A stretch of DNA of 64,000 nt. It comes from Acidimicrobiia bacterium (GTDB taxonomy: Bacteria > Actinomycetota > Acidimicrobiia > Spongiisociales > ZC4RG35). Below, piece after piece: positions 30,056 to 64,000 of this stretch. Where the stretch lies: NCBI GenBank assembly GCA_036259475.1, contig DATABS010000094.1:11801-75800 (forward strand), given 5' to 3'. The notes under the pieces were generated by a model, which had not been told where the DNA came from, did no database searches, and was given only the letters and a program-made list of their open reading frames with translations. Within the stretch, counting starts at the first letter, position 1, and each line of letters begins with the position of its first letter. The position numbers and the translations under genes are program-made.

Positions 30056-30058
30056 GCC

Positions 30059-47337: not shown

Positions 47338-47383
47338 CGTACCCCGGGCTGTCTGACCAGCCAGTCAGTTAGGCTTCGGGCTC

Positions 47384-47992
47384 ATGACGGATTCGGCGGA
47401 GCAGGAGAGAGGCGATCGCCGGTCGGAGTTGCTACGGACGGTGTACCGGGTGATGGCCCGTGGAGGTGTTCACCGGGTGCCGTTGCAGACCATCGCCGAG
47501 GAGGCGGGCGTCTCCAAGGGCCTACTCCTGTATCACTTCGATACCAAGGACGCCATGGTGGTGGAGGCGATGCAGTGGGTCCTGGAGGCGACGGAGGCGC
47601 GGATCCGTCAGCACATCAAGGAGGCGGAGGGGACCGACCGGATCCTGGAAGCGATTCTCGAGGCCATTTGGATCGACGCCGAGGCCAACCGGGACTTCTT
47701 CCGGTTCTATCTGGATGGCGTCGAGCATCAGGCGCGATCCCCCCAATTCGAAGAGTTCGGAGACCGCGGGAGGAGTGTGATCAATCGTCTCTATGAGGAG
47801 GTGATCTCCGATGGGGCCGCCCGGGGTCTGTTCTCGGTTACCGACGCCGCCTCGGCGGCGACCGAGATGCGGGCGGTGATCGAAGGGATGTTCCTGCAGT
47901 GGCTTCAGCGCCGCGACTGGAGGGAGGCGCATGCCGGCTACAAGCAGATGTGTCTGGAAGCCGTGTCGACCCTGCTAGGACCGCCGGGATGA
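47384..47992 (+). CDS. TetR family transcriptional regulator (likely regulator of the downstream box/pob/pca operon)
   Basis: HTH LQTIAEEAGVSKGLLLYHFDTKDAMV; position heading the aromatic catabolic operon. Confidence 0.8.
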   Translation: MTDSAEQERGDRRSELLRTVYRVMARGGVHRVPLQTIAEEAGVSKGLLLYHFDTKDAMVVEAMQWVLEATEARIRQHIKEAEGTDRILEAILEAIWIDAEANRDFFRFYLDGVEHQARSPQFEEFGDRGRSVINRLYEEVISDGAARGLFSVTDAASAATEMRAVIEGMFLQWLQRRDWREAHAGYKQMCLEAVSTLLGPPG

Positions 47993-48038
47993 GCCTCGGC
48001 CGCTTGTCCTGACTGTCCGGTCAGTCTAATCTCGGCGG

Positions 48039-49688
48039 GTGATCGATTTCCAGACTCACCCGGACGATTATCGACACTGGAGGCTCCAGGTGGTGGGTCG
48101 AGTCGCTTACCTGAACATGGCGGTCGATGCGAACGCCGGGCTCCACCCGGGCTACGAGCTGAAGCTCAATTCCTACGACCTCGGAGTGGACATCGAACTG
48201 GCCGACGCCGTCCAGCGACTGCGCTTCGAGCACCCCGCGGTCGGCGCAGTGGTGATCGGATCGCAACTCGACCGGGTGTTTTGCGCCGGTGCCAACATCG
48301 GGATGCTGGCTGGCGCCGCTCATGCGCTAAAGGTCAATTTCTGCAAGTTCACCAACGAGACCCGAACTGCCATCGAAGACGCCACTGCCAACTCCGCGCA
48401 GCGCTATATCGCCGCCGTCAACGGCAACGCCGCCGGAGGTGGTTACGAACTGGCGTTGGCCACCGACCACATCATGTTGGTGGACGATCGCAGTGCATCG
48501 GTGTCCCTTCCGGAGGTGCCGCTGCTCGGCGTGCTTCCCGGCACCGGTGGCCTCACCCGCCTGACGGACAAGCGCCACGTCCGTCGCGATAGGGCCGACA
48601 TCTTCTGCACGCTCGAAGAGGGCATCAAAGGATCCAAGGCCCTCGAGTGGGGGCTGGTCGACGAGCTGGTGCCGGCGCCCTCCTTCGCCGAGGTGGTGGC
48701 AGACAGGGCCTTCACCTTCGCCGAGGAAAGCCCCCGTCCAGTGGTCGCTGAGGCAGTCAGCTTGACGCCACTCGAACGCGACATCGCCGACGACGCCGTC
48801 ATCTACTCCTCAGTCAGCTGCGAGATCGATCGTTCCCGGCGGACGGCATCGATCGTCCTGCGGGGGCCGACCGAGACGCCGCCCGTCGACGGGGATGAGG
48901 CGGTTGGACGAGGGGCCGAATTCTGGCCACTTCGACTGGCGAGGGAACTCGACGACCTCATCCTGCATCTGCGCGTCAACGAACTCGAGATCGGAACCCT
49001 GCTCCTTCGGTCAGAAGGTGACCTCGACGTCGTGCTCGCCCACGACGCCTTCTCCCTCCAAAATATCGACCACTGGTTCGTCAACGAGGTGACGTTGCAC
49101 TGGGCCAGAGTCCTGCGGCGCCTCGACATGACGTCGCGGACGATCATTGCGTTGGTCGAGCCGGGCAGCTGTTTCGGCGGCATGCTCGCCGATCTCACCC
49201 TGGCGGCCGATCGCTCCTACATGCTGGAGGGCTCGTGGTCGGGTGAAGGCGGCGCCACGGCGAACCTGGCCTTCACCGAGACGAGCCGAGGGCGCCTTCC
49301 CATGGCCAACGGGCTCTCCCGCCTCGCCACCCGCTTCTGGGGCAACGATGAAGGGCTCGACCGGGCCGAGGCGGCGATCGGTGAGAAACTCGACGCCGTC
49401 GCCGCCGCCGAGGCGGGTTTGGTGACCGACATCATGGACGACCTCGATTGGGACGACGAGCTGCGCATGCTGATCGAGGAGCGCGCCGCCTTCTCTCCCG
49501 ACGGCCTCACCGGACTCGAGGCGAACCTGCGTTTCGTAGGCCCCGAGACGATGGACACGAAGATATTCGGCCGCCTCACAGCATGGCAGAACTGGGTGTT
49601 CCAGCGACCCAACGCATCTGGAGAGTCCGGGGCCCTGCGTCGCTACGGAACCGGAATCCGGCCGGAGTTCGACCCGAGGAGAGTCTGA
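48039..49688 (+). CDS. boxC: benzoyl-CoA-dihydrodiol lyase-like (BoxC; double crotonase-fold, 549 aa)
   Basis: crotonase motif AAVNGNAAGGGYELALATDH; N-terminal FQTHPDDYRHWRL...LKLNSYDLGVDIEL; size about 550 aa; immediately followed by a BoxB-like di-iron protein. Confidence 0.7.
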   Translation: MIDFQTHPDDYRHWRLQVVGRVAYLNMAVDANAGLHPGYELKLNSYDLGVDIELADAVQRLRFEHPAVGAVVIGSQLDRVFCAGANIGMLAGAAHALKVNFCKFTNETRTAIEDATANSAQRYIAAVNGNAAGGGYELALATDHIMLVDDRSASVSLPEVPLLGVLPGTGGLTRLTDKRHVRRDRADIFCTLEEGIKGSKALEWGLVDELVPAPSFAEVVADRAFTFAEESPRPVVAEAVSLTPLERDIADDAVIYSSVSCEIDRSRRTASIVLRGPTETPPVDGDEAVGRGAEFWPLRLARELDDLILHLRVNELEIGTLLLRSEGDLDVVLAHDAFSLQNIDHWFVNEVTLHWARVLRRLDMTSRTIIALVEPGSCFGGMLADLTLAADRSYMLEGSWSGEGGATANLAFTETSRGRLPMANGLSRLATRFWGNDEGLDRAEAAIGEKLDAVAAAEAGLVTDIMDDLDWDDELRMLIEERAAFSPDGLTGLEANLRFVGPETMDTKIFGRLTAWQNWVFQRPNASGESGALRRYGTGIRPEFDPRRV

Positions 49689-51130
49689 TGGCGTGGCAAG
49701 ATGTGGACTATGCGGCGTTGATCCCCAACAACGTCGGGCTGGGCGAGGACCCCAAGCTGCAGCGGGCTCTCGAAGCGTGGCATCCCGGCTACATCGACTG
49801 GTGGATGTCGATGGGCCCGGAAGGGTTCCAGATGAACGACGTCTACCTCCGGACCGCCGTCAGCGTCGAGAAGGAAGGGTGGGCGAAGTTCGACTTCGTC
49901 AAGATGCCGGAGTACCGATGGGGGATACTGCTCGCCCCCGAGGTCGAGGACCGGCGCATCCCCTGTGGGGAGCACGTCGGAGAGCCGGTCTGGCAGGAGG
50001 TGCCGGGCGAATACCGTTCGATGCTGCGCCGCTTGATCGTCATCCAGGGTGACACCGAGCCGGCCTCCGTAGAACAGCAACGCCACCTGGGAAGCACTGC
50101 TCCCTCCCTCTACGACATGCGCAACCTGTTCCAGGTGAACGTCGAGGAGGGCCGTCACCTGTGGGCGATGGTCTACCTGCTCCACAAGTACTTCGGCCGC
50201 GACGGGAGGGCCGAAGCCGACGATCTGCTGCGGCGTCAATCCGGTAGCGAAGAACAGCCCCGCATGCTCGGTGCCTTCAACGAGGAGACTCCCGACTGGC
50301 TCTCGTTCTTCATGTTCACCTACTTCACCGACCGGGACGGCAAGATGCAGCTCGAAGCTCTCGCCCAATCGGGCTTCGACCCGTTGTCGCGCACGTGCCG
50401 TTTCATGCTGGCCGAGGAAGCCCACCACATGTTCGTGGGCTACACGGGCGTCAAGCGGATCGTGGAGGCGACTTCCCGGGCCATGGCCGAGGCCGGGATA
50501 GACGATCCATATGACACCGAGCCGATCCGCGCTCTCGGAGTGATCGACCTCCCGACCATCCAACGCAAGACCAACCTGCACTATTCGCTCACCCTCGACC
50601 TCTTCGGCTCCGAGGAGTCGACCAACGCCGCCAACTTCTTCAACGCCGGGGTGAAGGGGCGCTTCCACGAGCACCGAATCGACGACGACCATCAGCTGCG
50701 GGATTCGACCTACCCGGTGGCCAAGCTGGTGGATGGAGAGCTTCGCTCTGTCGAGGTTCCCGCCCTCAACGCCCTCAACGCCCGCTTGCGCGACGACTTC
50801 ATGGACGATTGCCTCGGTGGCATCGCGCGCTGGAACCGCGCCATCGCCGACCTCGGTATCGAATTCGAGATCACGCTGCCCCACGTCGCCTTCAATCGGA
50901 TGATCGGTGAGTTGGCTGATCTGCATGTCTCACCCGACGGCCGGGTGTTGAGCGGCGAAGAGTTCACCGCCTCGCGGGACAACTGGCTGCCGACTGCCGA
51001 TGATCGGGCTTTCATCGAGAGCCTGATGCAGCCTCATTTCGAGCCGGGTAAGTTCGCTCCATGGATCGCCCCGCCGAGCCGTGGGATCAACAACCAGCCG
51101 ACCGATTACGAGTACGTGAAGCTCCCTTGA
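49688..51130 (+). CDS. boxB: benzoyl-CoA 2,3-epoxidase subunit B-like di-iron oxygenase (BoxB)
   Basis: about 480 aa with di-iron carboxylate ligand motifs (EEGRHLWAMVYLL, LAEEAHHMF); ATG shares 1 nt with the boxC TGA. Confidence 0.7.
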   Translation: MAWQDVDYAALIPNNVGLGEDPKLQRALEAWHPGYIDWWMSMGPEGFQMNDVYLRTAVSVEKEGWAKFDFVKMPEYRWGILLAPEVEDRRIPCGEHVGEPVWQEVPGEYRSMLRRLIVIQGDTEPASVEQQRHLGSTAPSLYDMRNLFQVNVEEGRHLWAMVYLLHKYFGRDGRAEADDLLRRQSGSEEQPRMLGAFNEETPDWLSFFMFTYFTDRDGKMQLEALAQSGFDPLSRTCRFMLAEEAHHMFVGYTGVKRIVEATSRAMAEAGIDDPYDTEPIRALGVIDLPTIQRKTNLHYSLTLDLFGSEESTNAANFFNAGVKGRFHEHRIDDDHQLRDSTYPVAKLVDGELRSVEVPALNALNARLRDDFMDDCLGGIARWNRAIADLGIEFEITLPHVAFNRMIGELADLHVSPDGRVLSGEEFTASRDNWLPTADDRAFIESLMQPHFEPGKFAPWIAPPSRGINNQPTDYEYVKLP

Positions 51131-52308
51131 CCACCTCCTCCGCAACGAAGGTCGTCATCGTTGGCGGGGGGCCGGCCGGGACTTTGCTCTCCCACATCCT
51201 CGACAGCCACGGCATCGACAACGTCGTCCTCGAGTTGCGAAGCCGGGATTACGTTCTCGGCAGGATCCGGGCCGGAGTGATCGAGCAGGGCAGCGCCGAC
51301 CTGCTCCGCAAATACGGTGTCGCGAACAGGATGGATCACGAAGGCTTTTCCCACGAGGGGGTGAACCTGGCCTGGGCGGGACGCCTCTTCCGCGTCGACT
51401 TCGTCGGTTTGACCGGGTCCCTGGTCACGATCTACGGGCAGACACAGATCCAAAGGGACCTCTACGAGGCCCGGGACGCCGCCGACGCCACCGTGGTGTT
51501 CGAGGCCGAGAACGTCACCCTCCACGATCTCGACACCAACCGGCCCTCCGTGACATACGAGGTGAGAGGAGAGCGCCAGACCGTCCAATGCGAGTTCGTC
51601 GCCGGTTGTGACGGAACCCACGGCACGTCGAGTTCTTACATCCCCGCCGAGCTGGTCAAGACTTATGAGAACGTCTATCCGTTCGGCTGGCTCGGGATCC
51701 TGTCAGAGACGCCTCCCATCAACGATGAACTGATCTACGCCAACCATCCTCGCGGTTTCGCCCTCTGCTCGATGCGCGACCCTCTCCTGAGCCGCTATTA
51801 CATCCAGTGCCCCCTCGACACGGACCTGGAGGCGTGGCCCGACGACCGTTTCTGGGAAGAGCTGGGGAAGCGTCTCCCGGCGCAGGTGGCCGAGACGCTC
51901 GTGACGGGGCCTTCGATCGACAAGTCCGTCACCCCGCTGGCGAGCGTGGTGAGAGAGCCGATGCAGCACGGGAAGCTGTTCCTGGCGGGTGACGCCGCTC
52001 ATGTGGTGCCACCCACCGGTGCCAAGGGGCTCAACCTGGCGATCTCGGACATCTATCACCTGTCTGCCGCCCTGATCGAGTACTACGAGAGCGGATCCAT
52101 GGCCGCGCTGGACTGCTACACGGAACGTGCACTGACGCGCGTCTGGAAGGCGGTGCGCTTCTCGTGGTGGATGACCAACCTCATGCATCAGTTCCCCGGC
52201 GAAGGCGCCTTTGCCTTGAAGATGCAGGAGGCCGAGCTCGGCTACCTAGCGTCATCGACGGCTGCGCAGACTGCCCTCGCCGAGAACTACGTTGGTCTTC
52301 CCTTCTGA
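51127..52308 (+). CDS. pobA: 4-hydroxybenzoate 3-monooxygenase
   Basis: very close match to the canonical PobA pattern (VVIVGGGPAGTLLSHIL, DYVLGRIRAGV(I/L)EQG, YPFGWLG(I/L)L, ANHPRGFALCS, GDAAH(V/I)VPPTGAKGLNLA, ENYVGLP(F/Y)); TTG start overlapping the boxB stop. Confidence 0.85.
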   Translation: MTTSSATKVVIVGGGPAGTLLSHILDSHGIDNVVLELRSRDYVLGRIRAGVIEQGSADLLRKYGVANRMDHEGFSHEGVNLAWAGRLFRVDFVGLTGSLVTIYGQTQIQRDLYEARDAADATVVFEAENVTLHDLDTNRPSVTYEVRGERQTVQCEFVAGCDGTHGTSSSYIPAELVKTYENVYPFGWLGILSETPPINDELIYANHPRGFALCSMRDPLLSRYYIQCPLDTDLEAWPDDRFWEELGKRLPAQVAETLVTGPSIDKSVTPLASVVREPMQHGKLFLAGDAAHVVPPTGAKGLNLAISDIYHLSAALIEYYESGSMAALDCYTERALTRVWKAVRFSWWMTNLMHQFPGEGAFALKMQEAELGYLASSTAAQTALAENYVGLPF

Positions 52309-52319
52309 GAGAGGCATGG

Positions 52320-52688
52320 ATGGACGCATACGAACGCGGCATGGTGACCCGGCGAGAAGTGTTGGGCGACGCCCATGTCGATCGAGCAGTGGCCGCCACC
52401 GATGATCTGGACGCCGGCTTCCAGCGCTGGATCACGGAGAACGTCTGGAACGGTGTCTGGTCCCGCCCCAACCTCGACCGGCGCACCCGCAGTCTGGTGA
52501 CTATCGCCATCCTCGCTTCCCTGGGGGCAGACGAACTGCGCCTTCACCTGGAGGCGGCCACCAACACCGGTACGACCCCCGAGGAGATCGCCGAGGTGCT
52601 GATGCACGTCGGGGTTTACGCTGGCGTCCCCGCGGCCCACTCGGCGTTCAAGCTGGCCAAGGAGATACACGGAGGCACAGATGACTGA
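52320..52688 (+). CDS. pcaC: 4-carboxymuconolactone decarboxylase
   Basis: CMD-family 122-aa protein (WSRPNLDRRTRSLVTIAILA, HVGVYAGVP). Confidence 0.8.
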   Translation: MDAYERGMVTRREVLGDAHVDRAVAATDDLDAGFQRWITENVWNGVWSRPNLDRRTRSLVTIAILASLGADELRLHLEAATNTGTTPEEIAEVLMHVGVYAGVPAAHSAFKLAKEIHGGTDD

Positions 52689-53400
52689 ACAGGCGCTGAG
52701 GCGCTACCGGAGCCGGGACTACAGCGACCACCCCCCGTTTTCGTATCCGGAGTACAAGTCCACGGTCAAGCGTGCGCCGCAGAAGAGCATGGTTTCGATC
52801 ATCCAGACCCTCACCGAGACGACGGGACCGGGACCGGTCTGGAGCGAGGTCGCCGAAGAAGACTCCGACCTCACGACTAACGCCGGGACCGGCCATCCCG
52901 CCATCGGCGAACGGATGATCCTGACCGGCCGGGTGCTCGACGAGGACGGGCAGGCCGTCCCGTCCACTCTGGTGGAGATCTGGCAGACGAACGCCGCCGG
53001 ACGCTACGTCCACTGGCGCGAATCGGAGTTCCCGGCGCCCCTCGATCCGAACTTCCTCGGTGTCGGGCGGGCCCTCACCGACAGCGACGGCGTCTACCGG
53101 TTCACCACCATCCGCCCCGGGGCGTATCCCTGGGGCAACCACCCCAACGCCTGGAGGCCCTCCCACATCCACTTCTCGCTCATGGGTCCTTCCCTCGGCA
53201 GTCGCCTCATCACCCAGATGTACTTCCCCGGTGACCCGTTGCTGGCACTCGACCCCATTTACAACTCGGTGCCCGCCCACTCCCGGGAACGGATGGTCGC
53301 CACATACGACCACGACATCACCCAAGAGAACTTCGCGCTCGGGTACCGCTGGGACATCGTGCTGCGTGGCTCGGGAACGGCGCCGGCAGGGGAAAGATGA
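52681..53400 (+). CDS. pcaH: protocatechuate 3,4-dioxygenase beta subunit
   Basis: intradiol dioxygenase pattern (GRYVHWRE, WRPSHIHFSL, YFPGDPL). Confidence 0.9.
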   Translation: MTEQALRRYRSRDYSDHPPFSYPEYKSTVKRAPQKSMVSIIQTLTETTGPGPVWSEVAEEDSDLTTNAGTGHPAIGERMILTGRVLDEDGQAVPSTLVEIWQTNAAGRYVHWRESEFPAPLDPNFLGVGRALTDSDGVYRFTTIRPGAYPWGNHPNAWRPSHIHFSLMGPSLGSRLITQMYFPGDPLLALDPIYNSVPAHSRERMVATYDHDITQENFALGYRWDIVLRGSGTAPAGER

Positions 53401-53401
53401 G

Positions 53402-53974
53402 ATGACCGTCGGCCTCACCCCTTCCCAGACCGTCGGGCCATACTTTTCGATGGCCCTGGCACATCCGGGCGAGAATTTGTTGGTCGGCCCCGACGATGAC
53501 AGCCGAATCAGGATCGAAGGATTCGTCTACGACGGCGAGGGAAACCACGTCGAAGATGCCCTGCTCGAGATCTGGCAGGCCGACGCCAAGGGCAACTATC
53601 GGCATCCCGACGACGCCGGCCCGCAGGCGGCCGACGGGTTCCGCGGCTTCGGACGGGCGTTGAGCGACTTCGAGACCGGCCGCTACTTCTTCGAGACGGT
53701 CAAACCGGGGCCCGTGCCAGACCCGGAAGGCGAGATGCAGGCTCCGCACATCGCGCTCGTCGTCCAGGGCAGGGGAATCCTCAATCCTTACTTCACCCGG
53801 ATCTACTTCGCCGACGAGGCGGACGCCAACCAGCACGACCTCGTGCTGGGGATGGTGCCTCGGGATCGCCGCTCCACCCTCATCGCCCGGCCGGTGGAGA
53901 ACACCACCCCACCCTGCTACCGGTTCGATATTCGACTACAGGGCGAGGGCGAGACCGTCTTCTTCGATTTCTGA
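53402..53974 (+). CDS. pcaG: protocatechuate 3,4-dioxygenase alpha subunit
   Basis: TPSQTVGPYF N-terminus and intradiol alpha-subunit pattern; ATG at 53402 just after the pcaH stop. Confidence 0.85.
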   Translation: MTVGLTPSQTVGPYFSMALAHPGENLLVGPDDDSRIRIEGFVYDGEGNHVEDALLEIWQADAKGNYRHPDDAGPQAADGFRGFGRALSDFETGRYFFETVKPGPVPDPEGEMQAPHIALVVQGRGILNPYFTRIYFADEADANQHDLVLGMVPRDRRSTLIARPVENTTPPCYRFDIRLQGEGETVFFDF

Positions 53975-54783
53975 TGGCGGAGTTCGTCTCACTCCAGGAG
54001 GCAATAGCCTCTTGGGTTACGGACGGGGACGTCGTCGCCCTCGAGGGATTCACCCACCTGATCCCATTCGCGGCGGGCCACGAGATCATCCGGCAGGGCA
54101 GAAGAGATCTCACCCTGATCCGGATGACACCCGACCTCGTCTACGACCAGATGATCGGGATGGGATGCGCCCGCAAACTCGTCTTCTCATGGGGCGGAAA
54201 CCCGGGGGTCGGCTCACTGCATCGCTTTCGGGACGCGGTGGAGAACGGCCATCCGGTACCGCTGGAGATCGAGGAACACAGTCACGCCGCCATGGCCGAC
54301 GCCTGGGCGGCGGGAGCGTCCGGCCTCCCGTTCGCCTTGCTTCGGGGATACCGAGGGACCAGCCTGACCGAGTTAGGCTCCACGGTCCGCTCGGTGACCT
54401 GCCCTTTCACCGGCGAAGAGCTGGCGGCAGTGGCTGCCCACCGTCCGGATGTCGGCATCATCCACGCCCAGCGAGCCGACCGACGGGGCAACGTCCTGGT
54501 GGAGGGCATAGTCGGAATCCAGAAGGAAACCGTGTTGGCTTCGGCTGCCTCGGTCGTCACGGTCGAGGAGGTGGTGGACGAACTGGCCGCTCCGAGCCTC
54601 AACAGCGTCGTGATCCCCGGATGGACGATCGACGCCATTGCCGTGGTGCCAGGTGGCGCCCGCCCCTCCTATGCCCACGGCTACTACCCGCGGGACAACT
54701 CCTTCTATCAGGAGTGGGACGCCATTTCGCGGGACCGGAATCGATTCGACCGGTGGATGCAACAGAACGTGATCGGGACATGA
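53974..54783 (+). CDS. pcaI: 3-oxoadipate CoA-transferase subunit A (GctA-type CoA-transferase alpha)
   Basis: CoA-transferase family I alpha subunit pattern; operon position. Confidence 0.75.
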   Translation: MAEFVSLQEAIASWVTDGDVVALEGFTHLIPFAAGHEIIRQGRRDLTLIRMTPDLVYDQMIGMGCARKLVFSWGGNPGVGSLHRFRDAVENGHPVPLEIEEHSHAAMADAWAAGASGLPFALLRGYRGTSLTELGSTVRSVTCPFTGEELAAVAAHRPDVGIIHAQRADRRGNVLVEGIVGIQKETVLASAASVVTVEEVVDELAAPSLNSVVIPGWTIDAIAVVPGGARPSYAHGYYPRDNSFYQEWDAISRDRNRFDRWMQQNVIGT

Positions 54784-55553
54784 GCGAATGGACCGCCCCC
54801 GAGATGATGGTGGTCGCCGCCGCCCGGGCACTCACCAACGACGATGTGTGTTTCGTCGGCATCGGGACCCCGTCGGAAGCATGCAACCTGGCCCGCTTGA
54901 CCCATGCCCCCCACCTGACGCTCATCTACGAGTCGGGGACGATCGGGGCGCGACCCGACGTGCTGCCTCTTTCCATCGGCGACGGCGATCTGTCGGAGAC
55001 GGCGGTCACGACCGTGTCGGTGCCGGAAATGTTCCGATATTGGCTTCAGGGCGGCCGCATCACGATCGGTTTCCTGGGAGCAGCCCAGATGGACCGATTC
55101 GGCAACATCAACACCACCGTGATCGGCGACTACGACCGGCCGTCGGTCCGGCTTCCCGGCGGAGGCGGTGCGCCGGAGATCGCCACGTCGTGCGGCGAGG
55201 TCTTTATCACGGCGAGCCACTCGCCTCGCGCCCTCGTCGAGAAGGTCGACTTCATCACGTCACTCGGCTTCGGGCGCGACGGCCGGGAGCGGGAGCGGCT
55301 CGGGATCACCACCAAGGGGCCGACCCTGGTCGTGACGGACCTGTGCACCATGCGGCCCGAGCAGGGGACCAATGAGCTGATCGTCGAGAATCTCCATCCC
55401 GGAGTCAGCCGCTCGGATGTCATCGACGCCACCGGGTGGAAGGTGCGCTTCGCCGACCAAGTGGGGGAAACACCGCCCCCGACTGTCGAAGAGCTGGAGG
55501 TCTTGCGTGATCTCAAGGCGAGGACCGAAGCGGCCCACGGGGGCGCATCATGA
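54780..55553 (+). CDS. pcaJ: 3-oxoadipate CoA-transferase subunit B
   Basis: beta-subunit pattern (GIGTPSEACNLA..., ESG..G); ATGA overlap with pcaI. Confidence 0.75.
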   Translation: MSEWTAPEMMVVAAARALTNDDVCFVGIGTPSEACNLARLTHAPHLTLIYESGTIGARPDVLPLSIGDGDLSETAVTTVSVPEMFRYWLQGGRITIGFLGAAQMDRFGNINTTVIGDYDRPSVRLPGGGGAPEIATSCGEVFITASHSPRALVEKVDFITSLGFGRDGRERERLGITTKGPTLVVTDLCTMRPEQGTNELIVENLHPGVSRSDVIDATGWKVRFADQVGETPPPTVEELEVLRDLKARTEAAHGGAS

Positions 55554-56656
55554 CGATCGACCCCGGATTCACGACTCAAGAAATGAGGCGTGTCTTCTCC
55601 GCCGAGTCGCGGATCTCACTGATGTGCCGGTTCGAGTCGGCGCTAGCCGAGGCGCAGGCGGAACTGGGCATCGTCCCGGCGCAAGCAGCCCGGGCGATCG
55701 CCAATGCCTGCTCCAACCCGCGGGGAGATGCCGACGCCATTCTGAGGCGGGGCTGGGAGACGGGGACACCGGTCCTGGCGTTGCTCGACGACCTTCGAAC
55801 TGGACTCTCCGAGGAGGACGGCAGATGGCTCCACCACGGCGCCACCACCCAGGACGTGGCGGACACTGCGCTGATGCTCCAGTGCCAAGCCGCCCTGCAG
55901 AGTCTCGATGGTGACCTCACCGCCGCCGCCGACCGCCTGGCGGAGCTGGCCGACGTCTACCGGGAAACCGCCGCCCTGGCCCGCACGTTCTATCAGCCGG
56001 CGGTGACGACGAGCTTCGGTAGCCGCGTGGCCGGATGGCTCCATCCGCTGGTACTGGTCCGTCGCGACTCTCGTCGACTGTCAGAGCGGCTCCCCATCCA
56101 GCTAGGAGGTCCGGTGGGTGACCTGGTCTCTTACGGCGACGGCGCCTTCACCCTCGGCGACCGGGTTGCCGCCCGTTTGGGGCTGGTTGGGGCGGTGCCC
56201 TGGCACACCGATCGATGGCCGGTCCAGGAAGTGGCTGGGTTGCTGGCGCGGGCCGCATCCGCCTGCTCCAAGATCGCCACCGACGTGGCGGTCCTGGCTG
56301 CCGACGGTGAGGTACGGGTTCGATCGGGAAGGTCGTCCTCCATGTCGGGCAAGGAGAACCCGGTCGACGCGATGCGGTCGGAGGCGGCGGCGCAGGTGTG
56401 CAAGGTGGTCGTGTCGGGGCTCGTGGCTCCACCGTCCCACGTACTCGAGCGGGGGATGGGGCCCTGGCATGCCGAGTGGGCCCTGATTCCCCTCGCCTTC
56501 CAAACCGCCGGGGCATCGGCCGCAGCGATCGCCCTTTGCCTCGATTCCCTCGAGGTCGGTGTGGAAGCCATGAAAGCGGCGGCCGGCGGTGAGGCGCCCG
56601 CCGACGCCGGACTGATCGAGCGGGTCGTTACCGCCCACCGGGAACTCGAAGGATGA
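55550..56656 (+). CDS. pcaB: 3-carboxy-cis,cis-muconate cycloisomerase (fumarate-lyase superfamily)
   Basis: lyase class II signature region GRSSSMSGKENPVDAMRSE; ATGA overlap with pcaJ. Confidence 0.75.
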   Translation: MTIDPGFTTQEMRRVFSAESRISLMCRFESALAEAQAELGIVPAQAARAIANACSNPRGDADAILRRGWETGTPVLALLDDLRTGLSEEDGRWLHHGATTQDVADTALMLQCQAALQSLDGDLTAAADRLAELADVYRETAALARTFYQPAVTTSFGSRVAGWLHPLVLVRRDSRRLSERLPIQLGGPVGDLVSYGDGAFTLGDRVAARLGLVGAVPWHTDRWPVQEVAGLLARAASACSKIATDVAVLAADGEVRVRSGRSSSMSGKENPVDAMRSEAAAQVCKVVVSGLVAPPSHVLERGMGPWHAEWALIPLAFQTAGASAAAIALCLDSLEVGVEAMKAAAGGEAPADAGLIERVVTAHRELEG

Positions 56657-57438
56657 AGCTGACCTCCACGGCAGACGGGACGCGCCTGGCCTGGGTGGAG
56701 GGGGGCAGGGGCCCCGCACTGGTGCTCCTCCACTCGCTGGGAACGGCCTCGGCGATGTGGTCGGCCCAGGCCACAGCCCTCGAAGACCGGTACCGGGTAC
56801 TCCGGGTAGATCTTCGCGGTCACGGCGAGTCGGACGCCCCGCCCGGACCCTACGCCATCGAGATGTTGGGGCGCGATCTGCTGGAGGTGGCCCAAGCTGC
56901 CGGGCTCGACCGGTTCCATCTCGGCGGGATCTCGCTCGGCGGACAGATCGCCCAGTGGGTCGCCATCCACCATGCCGAGCACCTGAAATCGGTGATTCTC
57001 TCGAACACCGCCGCCCGCATCGGCAGCGAACAGGGATGGACCGACCGGATCGCCGCCGTGCGCCAGCGCGGCCTCTCCGGGATCTCCGGGATGGTCGTCA
57101 GCGGCTGGTTCAGTGAAGGTTTTACCGACGACGAAGCCCGATCCCGGGCGACAGCGATGTTCGAGCAAACCGACCCCGAGGGCTACATCGGCTGCTGTCA
57201 CGCGCTGGCCACCGCCGATCTACGGGACGCCGTGGAGGAGATCTCCATGCCGACGTTGATCATCGCCGGAGAGGTCGATAGATCGACTCCACTCTCCGAC
57301 GCCGAGTGGCTCCATCAACGCATCCCCGGCAGTCGCCTCGAGGTGTTGGAGGGCCGCGCCCACCTCCCCAATCTCGAGGAGCCGGAGGAATACAGCGGCC
57401 TGCTCACCGATTGGTTGAGTCACGCGTCGTCTCTGTGA
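56653..57438 (+). CDS. pcaD: 3-oxoadipate enol-lactonase (alpha/beta hydrolase)
   Basis: nucleophile elbow GGISLGG; ATGA overlap with pcaB. Confidence 0.8.
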   Translation: MKLTSTADGTRLAWVEGGRGPALVLLHSLGTASAMWSAQATALEDRYRVLRVDLRGHGESDAPPGPYAIEMLGRDLLEVAQAAGLDRFHLGGISLGGQIAQWVAIHHAEHLKSVILSNTAARIGSEQGWTDRIAAVRQRGLSGISGMVVSGWFSEGFTDDEARSRATAMFEQTDPEGYIGCCHALATADLRDAVEEISMPTLIIAGEVDRSTPLSDAEWLHQRIPGSRLEVLEGRAHLPNLEEPEEYSGLLTDWLSHASSL

Positions 57439-57475
57439 GGATCCCTGCACCGAAGCTGTGCGCAGATCCTCACAG
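57433..57475. repeat. hairpin-forming repeat (CTGTGAGGATCCCTGCAC-cgaagct-GTGCGCAGATCCTCACAG) containing the pcaD stop codon; left copy of a pair flanking the DUF559 element
   Basis: 15/18-bp imperfect stem read from sequence; the 18-nt 3' arm recurs at 58232-58249 with 17/18 identity. Confidence 0.5.
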
Positions 57476-57543
57476 AAGTGTTGTGTCCCCCGGGTTTGGC
57501 GGGATGGCCCTCCATGAAGCGGATAGACCTCTAGGTAGGGCGC

Positions 57544-58257: not shown

Positions 58258-59382
58258 TCATCCCGGCTCGTAGCCCCACACGTCGGAGGCCACCTCGACG
58301 GTGCGGCCTAGCTTGCGCCACTGGTCGTCGGGTTCGATCGTGTTGCCGTGAGCGGTGGAAGAGAACCCGCATTGGTGGCTGAGGCACAGCTGCTCGAGGG
58401 GCGCATATTGGGCCGCCTCGTCGATGCGCCGCTTCACCTCGTCGGCGTCCTCGACCCGAGCGTGCTTGGAGCTCATCAGACCCAGTACCACCGTTTTTCC
58501 TTCCGGTAGGAAGCGCAGGGGCGCGAAGTCGCCCGACCGCTCGTCGTCGTACTCGAGGAAGAAGCCGTCGACCTCCATCTCGTTGAAAAGGGTCTCGGCG
58601 ACCGGTTCGTAGCCTCCCTGTGACACCCAGGCGCTCTGGAAGTTTCCCCGGCACAGGTGAACGCAGGCCACCATGTCGTCGGGACGGCCTTTGATGGCGT
58701 CGTTGATGAGGCGGCAGTAGAGGCGCGTGAGATCGTCGGGGTCGTCGCCCCGGGCGGCGGTGCGTTCCCGCACTTCGGGGTCACAGAGGTAGGCGAGGTT
58801 GGTGTCGTCCAACTGGACGTACGTGCAACCCCGGGAGGCCAGATCGGCGATCTCCTCCCGATAAGCGGCCGTGAGGTCGTCGAAGAACTGGTCGAGATCG
58901 GGATAGATGTCCTCGCCTATCGCCTTGCGCCCGCCCCGGAAATGGAGCATCGAGGGTGCCGGGATGCATACCTTGGGGGTGCGCGTGACCTGGGAGGCGA
59001 GAAAGTCGAAATCGTCGCCCTGGATGGGATGGGAGTGGCGGATCGGGGCGTCGACCAGCATCGTTGGGGGCTTGAACTCGATCTCGGTGCCGTTGTCGCG
59101 CTTGAACTTCGCCAGGAAGTCTCCCTCGGTCACGGTCACACCGTCGAGCTGTTGGAGAAAGTCGACGTGGAACATGAAGCGTCGGAACTCGCCGTCGGTG
59201 ATGCCCCGAAGCCCGACGTCTTCCTGTCTCTTGACCACCTCTGCGATCGCCTGATCCTCCACGCCGCGCAATTCCTCCGGTTCGATCACACCTGTCTCGT
59301 GTCTCTCCCGGGCGTCGATGACGGAGGGCGGTCGCAGGAAGCTCCCAACATGGTCGGCTCGGAATGGCGGTCGTTCTGTCAC
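58258..59382 (-). CDS. cobalamin-independent methionine synthase (MetE) C-terminal-domain-like methyltransferase
   Basis: about 374 aa single-domain UROD/MetE-like pattern (RADHVGSFLRPP, conserved Zn-site region HLCRGNF). Confidence 0.7.
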   Translation of the reverse strand: MTERPPFRADHVGSFLRPPSVIDARERHETGVIEPEELRGVEDQAIAEVVKRQEDVGLRGITDGEFRRFMFHVDFLQQLDGVTVTEGDFLAKFKRDNGTEIEFKPPTMLVDAPIRHSHPIQGDDFDFLASQVTRTPKVCIPAPSMLHFRGGRKAIGEDIYPDLDQFFDDLTAAYREEIADLASRGCTYVQLDDTNLAYLCDPEVRERTAARGDDPDDLTRLYCRLINDAIKGRPDDMVACVHLCRGNFQSAWVSQGGYEPVAETLFNEMEVDGFFLEYDDERSGDFAPLRFLPEGKTVVLGLMSSKHARVEDADEVKRRIDEAAQYAPLEQLCLSHQCGFSSTAHGNTIEPDDQWRKLGRTVEVASDVWGYEPG

Positions 59383-59417: not shown

Positions 59418-60428
59418 CTAGGCCGGTCGCTGCCCGCCGAATCTGCCAAACAACCGGGTTATCGCCGTGATCACGCCCTGCTTGAAGCCGAGGAACAAGA
59501 CGACGATGAGGCCGCCGTAGATGAGGACCCGCAACTGGCCGAACTCGACGAGCACTTCGTCCAGCACCGTGAACACCACCGCTCCCAGCAGAGGGCCGAG
59601 CAACGTTCCGATACCCCCGAATGCCAGCATGACCAGGACCCGAACGTCCACCTCACCGAACGAATAAGTCGAGGGCCCGATGTATCCCTCGGTATGGGCA
59701 TACAGCGCCCCCGCCAGTCCGAGCATCGCCGAACCGATGATCCCGGCGTAGATGCGGTAGCGGGCGACGTCGACGCCCGCCAACTCGGCCGTCGTCTCGT
59801 CGTCGCGCAGGGCCCGGAAGGCCCAGCCGATGTGAGACATCTGGAGCAGCCGGTAGACGATGAGGTAACCGACGACCAGCGCCAGGAGGCCGTAGTACGG
59901 CGGCACCAGCTCTCGCAAGAGGCTTCCCTCCCCTGCCTGGATCACCAGCCCCGTCTCCCCGCCAGTCAGGTCGCGTTGGCCCAGCAGGAGATTGTGGAAC
60001 GCAAGCGAGAAAGCCAGGGTGATGATGCCGGTGAAGATGACACCGAGTGAGCGACTCACTGCGATCCAGCTGATGACACCGCCCACGGCTGCGGCGACTA
60101 CCGCAGCCACCACCATCGCCAGGGGCATCCCCACCCCGGCCCGGTCTGCCAGGATCCCCGATGTGTAGCCGCCGATGCCCGCCAGGGCGCCGACGCAGAG
60201 GAACAGCTGGTTGGTGCTGCCGAAGATCACGTTGAAGGCGATGGCGTAGGCGGCGAACAGGAGACCCCCTACAGCCAGTCCCATCAGAAGCCGCGACTCT
60301 CCAATCGAGAGCGGCACCAGCGCCAACAGCGCGCCGGCGATGCCGATCGGGGCGTATGCCGCCAGGAGAGAGCGCCGAGCTCTCGATCCGGCGGCCGGGA
60401 CGGTCGGCTCCGACTTAGTGGACGTCAC
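59418..60428 (-). CDS. livM: branched-chain amino acid ABC transporter permease (LivM-type)
   Basis: multi-TM permease; overlaps the livH stop. Confidence 0.8.
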   Translation of the reverse strand: MTSTKSEPTVPAAGSRARRSLLAAYAPIGIAGALLALVPLSIGESRLLMGLAVGGLLFAAYAIAFNVIFGSTNQLFLCVGALAGIGGYTSGILADRAGVGMPLAMVVAAVVAAAVGGVISWIAVSRSLGVIFTGIITLAFSLAFHNLLLGQRDLTGGETGLVIQAGEGSLLRELVPPYYGLLALVVGYLIVYRLLQMSHIGWAFRALRDDETTAELAGVDVARYRIYAGIIGSAMLGLAGALYAHTEGYIGPSTYSFGEVDVRVLVMLAFGGIGTLLGPLLGAVVFTVLDEVLVEFGQLRVLIYGGLIVVLFLGFKQGVITAITRLFGRFGGQRPA

Positions 60429-61282
60429 CTTCGCCTGCCCAACAGGCCGGCAGGTCGGAAGAGGATGGTCAACGCCGCCGCCAACAAGAGCATGATCGTC
60501 GTGATGTAGGTCCCGATGTAGAAGGAGCTGATGGTGTTCACGATCCCGAGGAGGATGCCGGCCAAGAACGCCCCCAAGACGCTGCCCAGGCCCCCCACCA
60601 CCGTGACGATGAGGGCGAGGATGGTGAAGTCGATACCGGCGGTGACCTGGACCGGGGAGGTCATCGACCGGGTGATCGCGACCAATCCAGCCAGCACCGC
60701 GCTGAGCCCGAAGATCAGGCGGCGGGCGGCGACCGGATTGACCCCGACCAGTTGTGCCCCTTCTTCGTCCTGGATCACCGATCTGATAGCCCTACCCATC
60801 CGCGACCACCGGAAGAAGACCACCAGCAGGACTCCCACCAGAATCGAAACCACAGACGCCAGCAGGCTGCCCGAGCGCATCCGAACACCGAGGATCGAGA
60901 TCGCCTCGCCCCCGATATTGAGACTGAGGCCGCGGAGAGGGAATCGCCAAACCAGGAAGCCGTCGATCATGAACGCCACTCCGAGCGTCAGCAGCAGGCC
61001 CAAGAGGACCCGTTCTTCCCCCGTCTGACGGTACACGGGACGCATGAGGGTGGAGTCGATCAGGAGTCCCAAGGCTCCCGCCACGGCCAGCCCGGCAGCA
61101 ACGCCCGCGCCGGCGGGGAGACCGGCATCCATCAGGAGAGCGACCACGGTCGCCGCCACCACGGCGAGAGCGCCGTGGGCGAGGTTGAGCACGCCGCCCA
61201 GTCCGTAAACGAGAGTGAGTCCCACGCCGAGTAGGCCGAACTGGAGGCCCAGGACCAGCCCGTCGAGGACGGCCGCCTTCAC
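60425..61282 (-). CDS. livH: branched-chain amino acid ABC transporter permease (LivH-type)
   Basis: multi-TM permease, 285 aa. Confidence 0.8.
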   Translation of the reverse strand: MKAAVLDGLVLGLQFGLLGVGLTLVYGLGGVLNLAHGALAVVAATVVALLMDAGLPAGAGVAAGLAVAGALGLLIDSTLMRPVYRQTGEERVLLGLLLTLGVAFMIDGFLVWRFPLRGLSLNIGGEAISILGVRMRSGSLLASVVSILVGVLLVVFFRWSRMGRAIRSVIQDEEGAQLVGVNPVAARRLIFGLSAVLAGLVAITRSMTSPVQVTAGIDFTILALIVTVVGGLGSVLGAFLAGILLGIVNTISSFYIGTYITTIMLLLAAALTILFRPAGLLGRRR

Positions 61283-61977
61283 GCTACGCCCAGATAAGCC
61301 CGGCGGACGTCGGGGTCGTTGGCGAGCATCTCGGTCGTTCCCGTTTTGTGGATCCGACCGTTCTCGACCACATATCCCCGATCGGCCAGCTTCAGCGCCA
61401 GGGGGACTTGCTGTTCGGCGATGAGAAGGGTCATTCCCCGCCTGCGGAGGACTTCCAATGCGGCATAGGCCTCCTGCGCCAGTTTCGGGGCCAGACCGGT
61501 GCTGGGTTCGTCCAGCATGAGGAGCCGCGGCCGCGACATCAGGGCCCGGCCGACCGCCAGCATCTGCTGTTCACCGCCGCTCATCGTCCCGGCGTGCTGG
61601 TTCTGACGTTCGGCCAGCCGGGGGAACAGGTCCAGGACGAATTTCAACGTGGCCGGATCTGGTGCCCGGGGAAACGCTCCGAGGCCGAGGTTCTCCCCGA
61701 CCGACATCTGGGGAAAGAGGTGGCGCTCCGCCGGCACGTAGGCCAAGCCGGACCGGGAGATCTTGTGGACGGGCATCGCGGTGATCGACTTTCCTTCGAA
61801 TGTCACCGTGCCGGTCGAGACCGGTCCCAGGCCGCAGATCGCCCGGAACAGGGTGGTCTTGCCCGCCCCGTTCGAGCCGATGATGATCACCGCCTCGCCG
61901 GAAGCGACTGAGAAGTCGATCTCATGCACCACGTCTTCGCCGTGATATCCGGCCGAGAGACCGCTCACTTCAAGCAT
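61279..61977 (-). CDS. livF: branched-chain amino acid ABC transporter ATP-binding protein (LivF-type)
   Basis: Walker A GSNGAGKTT, signature MSGGEQQMLAVGRAL. Confidence 0.85.
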   Translation of the reverse strand: MLEVSGLSAGYHGEDVVHEIDFSVASGEAVIIIGSNGAGKTTLFRAICGLGPVSTGTVTFEGKSITAMPVHKISRSGLAYVPAERHLFPQMSVGENLGLGAFPRAPDPATLKFVLDLFPRLAERQNQHAGTMSGGEQQMLAVGRALMSRPRLLMLDEPSTGLAPKLAQEAYAALEVLRRRGMTLLIAEQQVPLALKLADRGYVVENGRIHKTGTTEMLANDPDVRRAYLGVA

Positions 61978-62707
61978 TGGCCCCGGTCCCGAGATATGCG
62001 TCGATCACGTCGGGATGGCGCATCACGTCCCCGGGCTGGCCTTCGGCGAGCATCGTCCCGAAGTTGAGCACGATGACGCGCTCGGCCAGGGTCATGACCG
62101 CCTTCATCACATGCTCTACCCAGATCACGGTGACGCCCAGCCGGTCGCGAACCGTCCGGACGATATCGATCGACGCCCGCAGCTCGGTGTCATTCAGGCC
62201 GGCCATAACTTCGTCGAGAAGCAGCAGTCGCGGGTGACCGGCGAGCGCCCGGGCTAGATCGAGGAAGCGTTGCTGGTGAAGGTTGAGCGTCCGCACCGCG
62301 TTGTGCTCCCTGGCGCCCAGCCCGACGAAGTCCAGCGCTTCCCGTGCCCTCTCGAGCGCTTGTTCCTCGGCGAAAAGGCCACTCGGGCTGCCGAACATCG
62401 CCCCGAGGGCGGCGTTCTCGAGCACCGTCATCGACGCGAACGCCTGCGGAGTCTGCGTCACCATTGCGATCCCCCGCCGACGGATGCGATGAGGCGCCAC
62501 CCCGTCGACACGACCATCAGCGAACCGGATACCGCCCGAGGTCGGCGCCTCCAGACCGCTGACGGCTTTCAAGAGTGTGCTCTTACCGGCGCCGTTGGGG
62601 CCGACGCCGGCGAGAATCTCGCCGTCGTCGACCTCGAACGTCACCCCGTCCAGGGCGGGTAGCCCGCCGAAGTGCTTCTCCAGGTTGTCGATCTCTAAGA
62701 GCGCCAC
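61970..62707 (-). CDS. livG: branched-chain amino acid ABC transporter ATP-binding protein (LivG-type)
   Basis: Walker A GPNGAGKST; GTG start at 62707 preferred over the longer ORF-track start. Confidence 0.8.
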   Translation of the reverse strand: MALLEIDNLEKHFGGLPALDGVTFEVDDGEILAGVGPNGAGKSTLLKAVSGLEAPTSGGIRFADGRVDGVAPHRIRRRGIAMVTQTPQAFASMTVLENAALGAMFGSPSGLFAEEQALERAREALDFVGLGAREHNAVRTLNLHQQRFLDLARALAGHPRLLLLDEVMAGLNDTELRASIDIVRTVRDRLGVTVIWVEHVMKAVMTLAERVIVLNFGTMLAEGQPGDVMRHPDVIDAYLGTGANA

Positions 62708-62717
62708 CCTGGTGGGG

Positions 62718-64000
62718 CTAGGAACCCGGCACGTACGGTTCGAGCGGCTCGGAGACGAACAAGCGCTCGGGATACCAGTCGCCGGCGCTATTCGTTCCTT
62801 CCGGTGCGGGACCTTCACCGACGATGTCGAATGCGATCGTCGCGTTGGACAGCTCGCCCCACTCGGTCCACGCCATCTCGAACATGTATCCCGGAAGGTC
62901 GAAGGACTGCCCGTGGAGGTACTCGGCGATTGCCACCGGGTCGTCTCCCGCCTCGCCGACGGCCTGGGCCACCATGGTCACGATGCCGTAGCCCGCGACG
63001 GCGTCATCGTCCATGAACGGGTTTTCTGACATCTCGACGTAGCGCCGGGCCAGCTCCTGGTAGTCCTCCGACGTGTGATCGGCGCACTTGAAGTCGGCGT
63101 AGCGGGCGACGGCGGCTTCCGCCACGCCGCCGCCCATGATGAGCGAGAAGGGGGTGTAGGCGCCGGTGACCGGGACGTCGAAGCCTAGGTCGGCGGACTG
63201 GATCGTGATGGCGCCGGAGCCGGGCGGATGCCCCGTGGCGACGATCATCTCAGGGGCGATGCCCTCCAGGCTGCGCAGGTACGTCGTGAAGTCCTGCTCT
63301 GGAACCGGAGCCACCTCGATTTGCAGCTCGATCTCGCTGGCCTCGGCGAAGGTGTCCTCCAACGAGGCACTCATGGCCTGGCCCCAGGCGTAGTCGGCGA
63401 TGATGGCGCCGATCGAGGTCATTCCTTGGTCCTGGGCGTACTGCAGGATGGGATCGCCCACCATCGGGGCGGAGGGGAGGCAGGTACGGAATGTGTAGCG
63501 GCTGTCCTGCGTGAGGATCTGCTCCGAACCGGCCTTGATGAGGAAGAGCGGCATCTCGAGTTCCTCGGCGGCCCGGCTGGTGGCAAGGGCCACGTCGCTC
63601 GAAATGATTCCGCCGACCGCCACCACGCCGTCTTGTTCGACCATCCGCTCCAACGCCTCGACCCCGGCTTCGGGATTGGACTGGTCGTCGGCGAGGACGA
63701 GCTCCAGCATCCGGCCGTCAACACCTCCCTGAGCGTTGATCTCGTCCACCGCCAGTTGCATCCCGTCACGGACATGGACGCCCCATGGGGTGAAGGTTTC
63801 GGTGAGCGAGGTGAGGGCCCCGATACGGATCGGCTCACCGTCGGACGGCGCCGGCGTCGTGTCGGTCCCGGCGGTGGTGTCGGGCGTGGTTGCCGCCGTG
63901 TCGTCGGGTGTCGTGGCGGTGGTCTCAGCCGTTGTGTCGTCGGCGCCGCCCGTCGTGGTGTCCGGCGCGGCGTCGTCACCGCAGGCGGCCACCACCAGGG
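62718..64000 (-). CDS. branched-chain amino acid ABC transporter substrate-binding lipoprotein (LivJ/K-like), partial (5' end beyond window)
   Basis: type I periplasmic binding protein pattern; Thr/Asp-rich low-complexity N-terminal linker; ORF continues past 64000. Confidence 0.75.
   Translation of the reverse strand, partial: LVVAACGDDAAPDTTTGGADDTTAETTATTPDDTAATTPDTTAGTDTTPAPSDGEPIRIGALTSLTETFTPWGVHVRDGMQLAVDEINAQGGVDGRMLELVLADDQSNPEAGVEALERMVEQDGVVAVGGIISSDVALATSRAAEELEMPLFLIKAGSEQILTQDSRYTFRTCLPSAPMVGDPILQYAQDQGMTSIGAIIADYAWGQAMSASLEDTFAEASEIELQIEVAPVPEQDFTTYLRSLEGIAPEMIVATGHPPGSGAITIQSADLGFDVPVTGAYTPFSLIMGGGVAEAAVARYADFKCADHTSEDYQELARRYVEMSENPFMDDDAVAGYGIVTMVAQAVGEAGDDPVAIAEYLHGQSFDLPGYMFEMAWTEWGELSNATIAFDIVGEGPAPEGTNSAGDWYPERLFVSEPLEPYVPGS

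Follow-up and report, generated by a model that had tools for sequence, protein, structure and literature searches.

A TetR-headed gene array joining boxC-boxB to pobA and the protocatechuate genes in an Acidimicrobiia bacterium: a probable rearrangement of an aromatic-acid island

Two described systems are closest to the locus reported here. The first comprises the box clusters of Aromatoleum (Azoarcus) evansii, Paraburkholderia xenovorans and many Alphaproteobacteria, which contain bclA, boxA, boxB, boxC, boxD and boxR and act on benzoyl-coenzyme A (benzoyl-CoA). BoxC co-purifies with BoxB, relieves its product inhibition and opens the ring to yield an aliphatic CoA ester; of BoxA, small amounts suffice, and its contact with BoxB is transient (PMC4498308). 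The second is the protocatechuate branch of the beta-ketoadipate pathway, which comprises pobA, pcaHG, pcaB, pcaC, pcaD, pcaIJ and pcaF, with PcaR or PcaU as regulator, and is found in supraoperonic pca-pob clusters. For UBA5794 Acidimicrobiia, a 2025 paper listed only boxBC and suggested that these genes were horizontally acquired (PMC12008989). Here we describe a stretch of 64,000 nucleotides (nt) from an Acidimicrobiia bacterium, hereafter the window, in which 11 co-directional genes at 47384-57438, headed by a tetR gene, bring boxC and boxB directly ahead of pobA and the protocatechuate genes.

In our interpretation, the window holds a widespread aromatic-acid island of Acidimicrobiia in rearranged form, in which two known and independent routes would have come to lie in one TetR-controlled operon. 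We give this reading a probability of roughly 0.75.

The boxCB-pobA-pca gene array

NCBIfam and Pfam scans, in which NCBIfam scores were compared with the curated cut-offs (bits), yielded the gene order tetR-boxC-boxB-pobA-pcaC-pcaH-pcaG-ctA-ctB-pcaB-pcaD. The features of the array, all on the + strand, are as follows.

47348..47375, +: predicted tetR promoter/operator; palindrome CTGACCAGCCAGTCAG (47353-47368), then the −10-like TAGGCT (47370-47375); ATG at 47384
47384..47992, +: tetR, TetR-family repressor with a BetI-type C-terminal domain, probable regulator of the box regulon (Pfam TetR_N and TetR_C_6)
48004..48032, +: predicted boxC promoter; −35 TTGTCC (48004-48009), operator CTGACTGTCCGGTCAG (48009-48024) in the 17-nt spacer, −10 TAATCT (48027-48032)
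48039..49688, +: boxC, GTG start (TIGR03222, 843 bits, cut-off 712, full length)
49688..51130, +: boxB, di-iron oxygenase component of benzoyl-CoA 2,3-epoxidase (TIGR03225, 869 bits, cut-off 499)
51127..52308, +: pobA, 4-hydroxybenzoate 3-monooxygenase (TIGR02360, 605 bits, cut-off 538.7, full length)
52320..52688, +: pcaC, stand-alone 4-carboxymuconolactone decarboxylase (TIGR02425, 156.6 bits, cut-off 155.7; Pfam CMD)
52681..53400, +: pcaH, protocatechuate 3,4-dioxygenase beta subunit (TIGR02422, 318 bits, cut-off 296)
53397..53974, +: pcaG, protocatechuate 3,4-dioxygenase alpha subunit (TIGR02423, 215 bits, cut-off 126)
53974..54783, +: ctA, CoA-transferase subunit A of the glutaconate-CoA-transferase type, putative PcaI role (Pfam CoA_trans)
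54780..55553, +: ctB, CoA-transferase subunit B, putative PcaJ role (Pfam CoA_trans, 130 bits)
55550..56656, +: pcaB, 3-carboxy-cis,cis-muconate cycloisomerase, short actinobacterial form of 368 residues (TIGR02426, 269.5 bits, under the cut-off of 355.75)
56653..57438, +: pcaD, stand-alone 3-oxoadipate enol-lactonase (TIGR02427, 268.5 bits, cut-off 255.85)
57432..57476, +: stem-loop without a U tract, overlapping the pcaD stop codon; probable transcript end

On their sequences, BoxC and BoxB are canonical, equivalog-level members of their families. BoxC aligned end to end with BoxC of P. xenovorans (PDB 2W3P, 647 bits) and BoxB with that of A. evansii (PDB 3PER/3PM5, 683 bits). In the latter alignment, residues Q116, E120, E150, H153, D211, E240 and H243, which we take to be the di-iron ligands and their neighbours, were all conserved. 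BoxB was 70-75% identical to BoxB of alphaproteobacterial clusters with the order ligase-hydrolase-boxC-boxB-boxA, and its match to Pfam PaaA_PaaC reached 31 bits only. A preliminary description of this stretch had placed tetR and ten catabolic genes in this array, which the scans and our reading of the gene junctions bore out, and had named PaaA/PaaG-like proteins as the contrary outcome for its BoxB and BoxC assignments; no such placement was seen.

PcaH, PcaG, PcaC and PcaD each passed their equivalog cut-offs, and pcaC and pcaD are separate genes, as had been described. The CoA-transferase subunits did not reach the PcaI and PcaJ subfamily cut-offs (36 versus 128.5 bits for ctA and 29 versus 243.6 bits for ctB), and the nearest solved relative is glutaconate CoA-transferase (114 bits between ctA and GctA, PDB 1POI). 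Homologues of ctA that are 66-82% identical lie beside pobA-pca genes and a PcaR-type IclR gene in more than 15 loci, and the context of ctB is likewise conserved. This conserved linkage suggests that ctA and ctB encode the 3-oxoadipate:succinyl-CoA transferase, the role of PcaIJ. Homologues of the short PcaB, of 359-382 residues, are encoded at the equivalent point of the pca clusters in the related loci L082, L084 and L086. The pcaF gene had been described as absent from the window, and tblastn (E ≤ 1e-2) detected no homologue in the 64 kb of either the L082 thiolase or the IclR-type PcaR of L082 (TIGR02431, 333 bits).

The genes of the array are tightly packed, with overlaps of 1-8 nt. The boxC/boxB and pcaG/ctA junctions read TGATG; the pcaH/pcaG, ctA/ctB, ctB/pcaB and pcaB/pcaD junctions each read ATGA; and pcaC and pcaH overlap by 8 nt. 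At the boxB/pobA junction, TTGA, the TTG start of pobA overlaps the boxB stop codon. The sole gap in the catabolic gene series is the 11 nt between pobA and pcaC, which carry the ribosome-binding site GAGAGG; the pcaC start is at 52320, not 52317. The hairpin after pcaD had a folding energy of −26.8 kcal/mol (z = −5.6), and none of 200 shuffled sequences folded equally well. Inside the operon, sigma-70 and terminator pattern scans detected no promoter-like or terminator-like site above chance. In agreement with the preliminary description, the tight packing, the hairpin and the lack of internal signals indicate that the catabolic genes of the array almost certainly form one transcription unit.

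The joining of boxB to pobA is not an assembly artefact, because the independent metagenome contig L081, 97.5% identical to the window at the nucleotide level in boxB, repeats the boxB-pobA-pcaC-pcaH junction and thus places it in a second strain. The overlapping pobA gene with its TTG start was likewise called on that contig. Purifying selection acts on every gene sampled, with ratios of nonsynonymous to synonymous substitution (dN/dS) of 0.06-0.12. The ratio for boxB was 0.056 against L081 and ∼0.1 against L001 and L082.

The operator and the island beyond the window edge

The 16-bp palindrome CTGAC-N6-GTCAG had exactly two matches in the 64 kb, with 0.09 expected by chance, and both lie at promoters, those of tetR and boxC. 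The tetR copy lies 16 nt ahead of the tetR ATG. The boxC copy fills the promoter spacer, an arrangement that appears typical of a repressor-occluded promoter. The GTG start of boxC lies only 6 nt beyond the −10 element TAATCT, so the boxC mRNA is probably leaderless. The same layout of promoter and palindrome precedes boxC in L001, L003 and L086, and TetR homologues that are 47-54% identical adjoin boxCB in L001, L002, L003, L086, L168 and L169. Two further copies of the palindrome lie past the window edge: a perfect one in the intergenic region between a hydrolase and a ligase gene, and one with a single mismatch close to the edge, ahead of the binding-protein gene of an ABC transporter. The relative L171 holds both of these sites. 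The palindrome is therefore found at four promoters of the island (tetR, boxC, the transporter and the hydrolase/ligase pair).

The adjacent TetR is most likely the protein that binds CTGAC-N6-GTCAG. Because the same palindrome precedes tetR, boxC, the transporter and the hydrolase/ligase pair, the genes for uptake, activation, the box enzymes and the pobA-pca enzymes look like one TetR regulon. By analogy with other TetR regulators that sense CoA thioesters, the effector is probably benzoyl-CoA. The pca genes have apparently moved from the control of PcaR to that of the box repressor. No second regulator was found among the island genes scanned from 47384 to the ligase, although no search was aimed at BoxR.

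We then considered the ligase. Inside the window, tblastn (E ≤ 1e-2) and a motif scan detected no benzoate-CoA ligase. An AMP-binding-like match of 31 residues at 32705-32797 falls within a formate-tetrahydrofolate ligase gene, so it does not represent an acyl-CoA ligase. Logan contig L170 is 100% identical to positions 62715-64000 of the window and runs 1,979 nt further. In window-equivalent coordinates, it contains the 5′ end of the binding-protein gene, which reaches 64049 (− strand); an alpha/beta hydrolase gene at 64139-64921 (− strand), whose product is 41% identical to the hydrolase of a Bradyrhizobium box cluster; and, divergent from the latter, a ligase gene from 65014 (+ strand), of which the first 322 residues are present and 64% identical to the L082 ligase. 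The ligase gene thus begins ∼1,014 nt beyond coordinate 64000, in the same orientation as the operon. The window's binding protein is 100% identical to HEX2154896.1 of an Acidimicrobiia metagenome-assembled genome, and the full-length ligase (P0241/HEX2154898.1, 515 residues) is encoded on the same 85,672-bp contig as that protein. According to TIGR02262, a subfamily-level model whose score does not settle benzoate specificity, the ligase belongs to the benzoate-CoA ligase family (554 bits, cut-off 375). Its score against the 3-hydroxybenzoate-CoA ligase model was 373 bits, with a cut-off of 1000.

The apparent lack of a ligase is an artefact of the window edge, and a gene of the benzoate-CoA ligase family belongs to the island. 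The preliminary description, which reported no CoA ligase, was correct for the window only: the gene lies ∼1 kb past its edge, behind the same palindrome. That description had also named a boxA and ligase pair immediately outside the window as a contrary outcome; the ligase is there, and boxA was not found in the 2 kb beyond.

The genes that run from the window edge towards the array are on the − strand.

59418..64000, −: LIV-type ABC transporter, probable aromatic-acid uptake system of the island
59418-60428 and 60425-61282, −: LIV-type permeases
61279-61977 and 61970 to ∼62710, −: LIV-type ATPases
62718 to 64049, −: LIV-type binding protein, running off the window
58258..59382, −: MetE-like gene that encodes the catalytic domain only and closes the transporter operon (NF005085, 453 bits; 347 bits to PDB 1YPX)

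Binding proteins encoded beside boxCB and the ligase in L167-L169 share 57-62% identity with that of the window. Orthologues of the MetE-like gene lie directly upstream of boxC in L002 (L002:7156-8325, 82% identical) and, at 75% identity, immediately ahead of pobA and stop/start-coupled to it in L087, L088 (L088:8850-9995), L089 and L092. A methyl-transfer step on methoxybenzoates would be a guess at its function. A DUF559 (endonuclease-like) gene at 57544-58212 (+ strand), which separates the pcaD hairpin from the convergent transporter operon, has no counterpart in related loci and marks a presumed rearrangement breakpoint.

Origin of the arrangement and the electron donor of BoxB

The nearest BoxB sequences, at 79-87% identity, all come from Acidimicrobiia metagenome-assembled genomes. 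A metagenome scan with PobA detected no relative nearer than 68%. We compared 13 related Actinomycetota box loci, with ±10 kb visible around each. Among them, boxC-boxB, the TetR, a benzoate-CoA ligase family gene (537-600 bits, cut-off 375), the alpha/beta hydrolase and the LIV-type ABC transporter recur, often with a 4HBT thioesterase. Further recurring parts are a LigM-like demethylase and a pobA-pcaC-pcaH-pcaG-pcaB-pcaD operon with a divergent CoA-transferase pair and a PcaR-type IclR. The LigM-like protein, a tetrahydrofolate-dependent vanillate/3-O-methylgallate O-demethylase, is a regular island member (L001:14990-16393, 700 bits; L082:5320-6714; L084, L168 and L169) and is absent from the window.

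The box and pobA-pca genes adjoin in L001, L082, L084, L086 and L088, and in the first four the pobA-pca operon converges on boxCB. L001 shares the upstream MurA-NifU-PPDK flank of the window, so the island lies at a conserved chromosomal site. When the transporter-to-pobA segment of L084 was inverted on paper, the order of the window resulted: boxCB, pobA-pca and the transporter on the − strand. Inversion of a convergent block would therefore best explain the position of pobA directly behind boxB. The internal order pcaC-H-G-ctA-ctB-pcaB of the window recurs in L100. In L088, one strand carries boxB, the hydrolase, the thioesterase, the transporter, the ligase, the MetE-like gene, pobA and pcaCHGBD, so co-directional box-pca arrays arose more than once.

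In the scheme that we propose, benzoate would be imported by the ABC transporter and probably activated by the ligase. BoxB would epoxidise benzoyl-CoA with an electron donor encoded elsewhere, and BoxC would open the ring to give 3,4-dehydroadipyl-CoA semialdehyde and formate; the later steps would need a BoxD-like dehydrogenase and beta-oxidation enzymes. PobA, PcaHG, PcaB, PcaC, PcaD and the GctAB-type transferase would convert 4-hydroxybenzoate via protocatechuate to 3-oxoadipyl-CoA. The two routes would not feed each other and would converge only at 3-oxoadipyl-CoA. Transcription would begin at the probably leaderless promoter directly ahead of boxC, with TetR seated on the palindrome until released by its effector. 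The inversion would have put pobA directly behind boxB and cut the pca genes off from their usual IclR regulator, PcaR.

Several points weigh against this scheme. With benzoyl-CoA as effector, self-induction of 4-hydroxybenzoate catabolism is left unaccounted for. No BoxD, PcaF or BoxA was detected in the 64-kb window, so neither pathway is seen complete there. The CoA-transferase subunits and PcaB score under their family cut-offs and were assigned from context. A promoter may exist inside boxB. Finally, PcaB (41-42%), PcaD (44-48%) and PobA (61-67%) are less similar to their counterparts in L001, L082 and L088 than are BoxB (81-85%) and BoxC (74-75%). The stronger divergence of the pca genes may reflect two modules with different histories rather than one simple inversion.

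The electron donor of BoxB bears on the first of the alternatives. In the window, tblastn (E ≤ 1e-2) with an alphaproteobacterial BoxA, that of L006 with two 4Fe-4S motifs, yielded no match, and no CxxCxxCxxxC motif was found. The open reading frame (ORF) that follows boxB in Bradyrhizobium (L025:11476-12642) was dropped as a BoxA reference, as it matches no family. At E ≤ 1e-3, there was no match in the 2 kb beyond the window (L170) or in L171, including the region after the L171 ligase; L171 is the closest relative with the same layout. Nor was BoxA found within ±10 kb of boxB in the 13 Actinomycetota loci (12 by tblastn, the 13th from Pfam only). Among the 72 boxB loci with at least 3 kb downstream, which are mostly proteobacterial with few Actinomycetota, boxA directly follows boxB in 41, is missing from 27, including all Bradyrhizobium loci, and is represented by partial or FNR-like matches only in four. 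These data agree with the preliminary description, according to which boxA is not linked and the reductase is either unlinked or non-canonical. BoxA does not appear to be part of the aromatic island in this lineage, and BoxB would have to be reduced by a protein encoded elsewhere. Tight coupling of boxC to boxB and loose linkage of boxA fit the co-purification of BoxC with BoxB and the transient interaction of BoxA (PMC4498308).

The preliminary description had named an FNR-like gene as the only candidate reductase of the window. This gene, at 30059-31795, encodes an Fpr-like protein that scored 31 bits against the BoxA cut-off of 459. It is not the only candidate: the gene at 8067-9626 (+ strand), 40 kb from the operon, encodes an N-terminal Rieske [2Fe-2S] domain fused to an HcaD/AndAa-like ferredoxin-NAD+ reductase (292 bits). 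We rejected both as dedicated BoxB partners, as neither has a homologue in any related locus. We also rejected pobA as a positional stand-in for boxA; in relatives, boxB is followed by the ligase, the transporter, tetR or a convergent pcaD.

The Fpr-like gene belongs to a one-carbon/folate-like cluster at 27174-33591, together with genes for a GCV_T aminomethyltransferase, a flavin amine oxidase and the formate-tetrahydrofolate ligase. The Fpr-like protein has 578 residues, of which the N-terminal 330 are without family assignment. The formate-tetrahydrofolate ligase could in principle use formate from BoxC. With respect to BoxD, tblastn (E ≤ 1e-2) detected no homologous aldehyde dehydrogenase in the window; in L082, a generic Aldedh gene, under all equivalog cut-offs, is linked to the island. 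Elsewhere in the window, a 495-residue ORF at 21224-22711 (− strand) has gene-like codon-position GC content and no Pfam match.

The alternative that survives best, which is compatible with the scheme above, is that the box route of Acidimicrobiia uses no BoxA at all, BoxB being reduced by another, as yet unrecognised reductase, general or dedicated. It draws on the absence of BoxA from the window, the 2 kb beyond and the surroundings of boxB in Actinomycetota, on the 27 of 72 loci without linked boxA, on the purifying selection acting on boxB, on the listing of boxBC alone in UBA5794 (PMC12008989), on the transient nature of the BoxA-BoxB contact (PMC4498308) and on the presence in the window of the Rieske-ferredoxin-reductase fusion and the Fpr-like protein. 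However, each locus was viewed over ±10 kb, and boxA may sit unlinked elsewhere in these genomes. Moreover, no redox gene is conserved beside boxCB across the Acidimicrobiia loci, and the two candidates in the window lack homologues in related ones. We regard a BoxA-free route as a serious possibility that falls somewhat short of even odds.

In Bradyrhizobium, a conserved ORF of ∼388 residues follows boxB in the usual place of boxA, with no match to Pfam or NCBIfam (L025:11476-12642; also L014, L034, L040, L042, L060, L061, L066, L067 and L077). Its product is a candidate replacement partner, or the gene is unrelated. A broader proposal is that Acidimicrobiia and, separately, Bradyrhizobium and other Alphaproteobacteria run BoxB without BoxA by means of an unrecognised donor, and that in the present locus a benzoyl-CoA-sensing TetR took over control of 4-hydroxybenzoate and protocatechuate catabolism. 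We put this forward tentatively and consider it rather doubtful as a whole.

According to a further alternative, in line with a suggestion of the preliminary description, BoxB and BoxC use an aryl-CoA other than benzoyl-CoA, for instance a hydroxybenzoyl-CoA, and supply PobA and the protocatechuate enzymes with the product in one linear hybrid pathway. The translational coupling of boxB to pobA and the absence of both a ligase and boxA from the window are what one would expect of such a pathway. TIGR02262 is, moreover, only a subfamily-level model, and the ligase does score 373 bits against the 3-hydroxybenzoate-CoA ligase model, though the cut-off of the latter is 1000. By contrast, BoxB and BoxC lie far over their equivalog cut-offs, the residues that we presume to be di-iron ligands are conserved, and BoxB is 70-75% identical to BoxB of clusters that encode a benzoate-CoA ligase and BoxA. 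Most relatives keep the two modules as separate, convergent operons, the pca genes having their own IclR regulator. Above all, BoxC yields an aliphatic CoA ester (PMC4498308); because the ring is opened, its product cannot become an aromatic acid. Canonical BoxB and BoxC, partners of the benzoate-CoA ligase family and a ring-opened product leave the hybrid pathway unsupported, and we consider it highly improbable.

We hold it equally improbable that boxCB is a relic, decaying or without function, that travels with a working pobA-pca operon: both reading frames are uninterrupted and of full length, the residues presumed to bind metal are conserved, boxB has the low dN/dS values given above, and a dedicated regulator, operator, ligase and transporter have all been kept. 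In its favour, the window yielded neither BoxA nor BoxD, and boxBC was probably acquired horizontally (PMC12008989).

Comparison with known systems

With the box clusters, the window shares canonical BoxB and BoxC and, in its island, a benzoate-CoA ligase family gene, an alpha/beta hydrolase and a LIV-type ABC transporter. The boxC-boxB order and its translational coupling are those of alphaproteobacterial box loci. The window differs from these clusters in having pobA in the place after boxB where boxA most often stands, in containing no BoxD-like dehydrogenase, and in having a TetR with its CTGAC-N6-GTCAG operator where they have the XRE-type BoxR.

Compared with the protocatechuate branch, the window encodes enzymes for every step between 4-hydroxybenzoate and 3-oxoadipyl-CoA, with pcaC and pcaD as separate genes. 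The CoA-transferase is of the glutaconate-CoA-transferase type and PcaB is short, both scoring under the respective cut-offs. Whereas an IclR/PcaR gene stands beside the pca loci of sister Acidimicrobiia, the window contains neither an IclR gene nor pcaF, and its pca genes lie behind the box promoter.

If our reading is correct, a local inversion can weld catabolic modules that converge on one intermediate into a single regulon. The locus would also define a TetR and operator pair that governs box genes in Actinobacteria, a group without the proteobacterial BoxR. Pathway predictions from metagenomes that make boxA a requirement for aerobic benzoate degradation would overlook such organisms, and the identity of the BoxB reductase in the many genomes without linked boxA is therefore a useful question.

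The closest comparison is with the islands of other Acidimicrobiia (L001, L082, L084, L086, L088, L168 and L169), which share with the window their gene families, the TetR and its operator, and the chromosomal surroundings, seen in L001 as the MurA-NifU-PPDK flank, and none of which contains boxA. In these islands, the pobA-pca operon is usually separate from, and convergent to, boxCB, and the ligase usually lies right beside boxCB. By contrast, the modules are co-directional only in the window, in its sister strain L081 and, more loosely, in L088. The novelty is accordingly modest: the enzymes are ordinary, and the locus represents a new arrangement of known catabolic parts with a different regulator.

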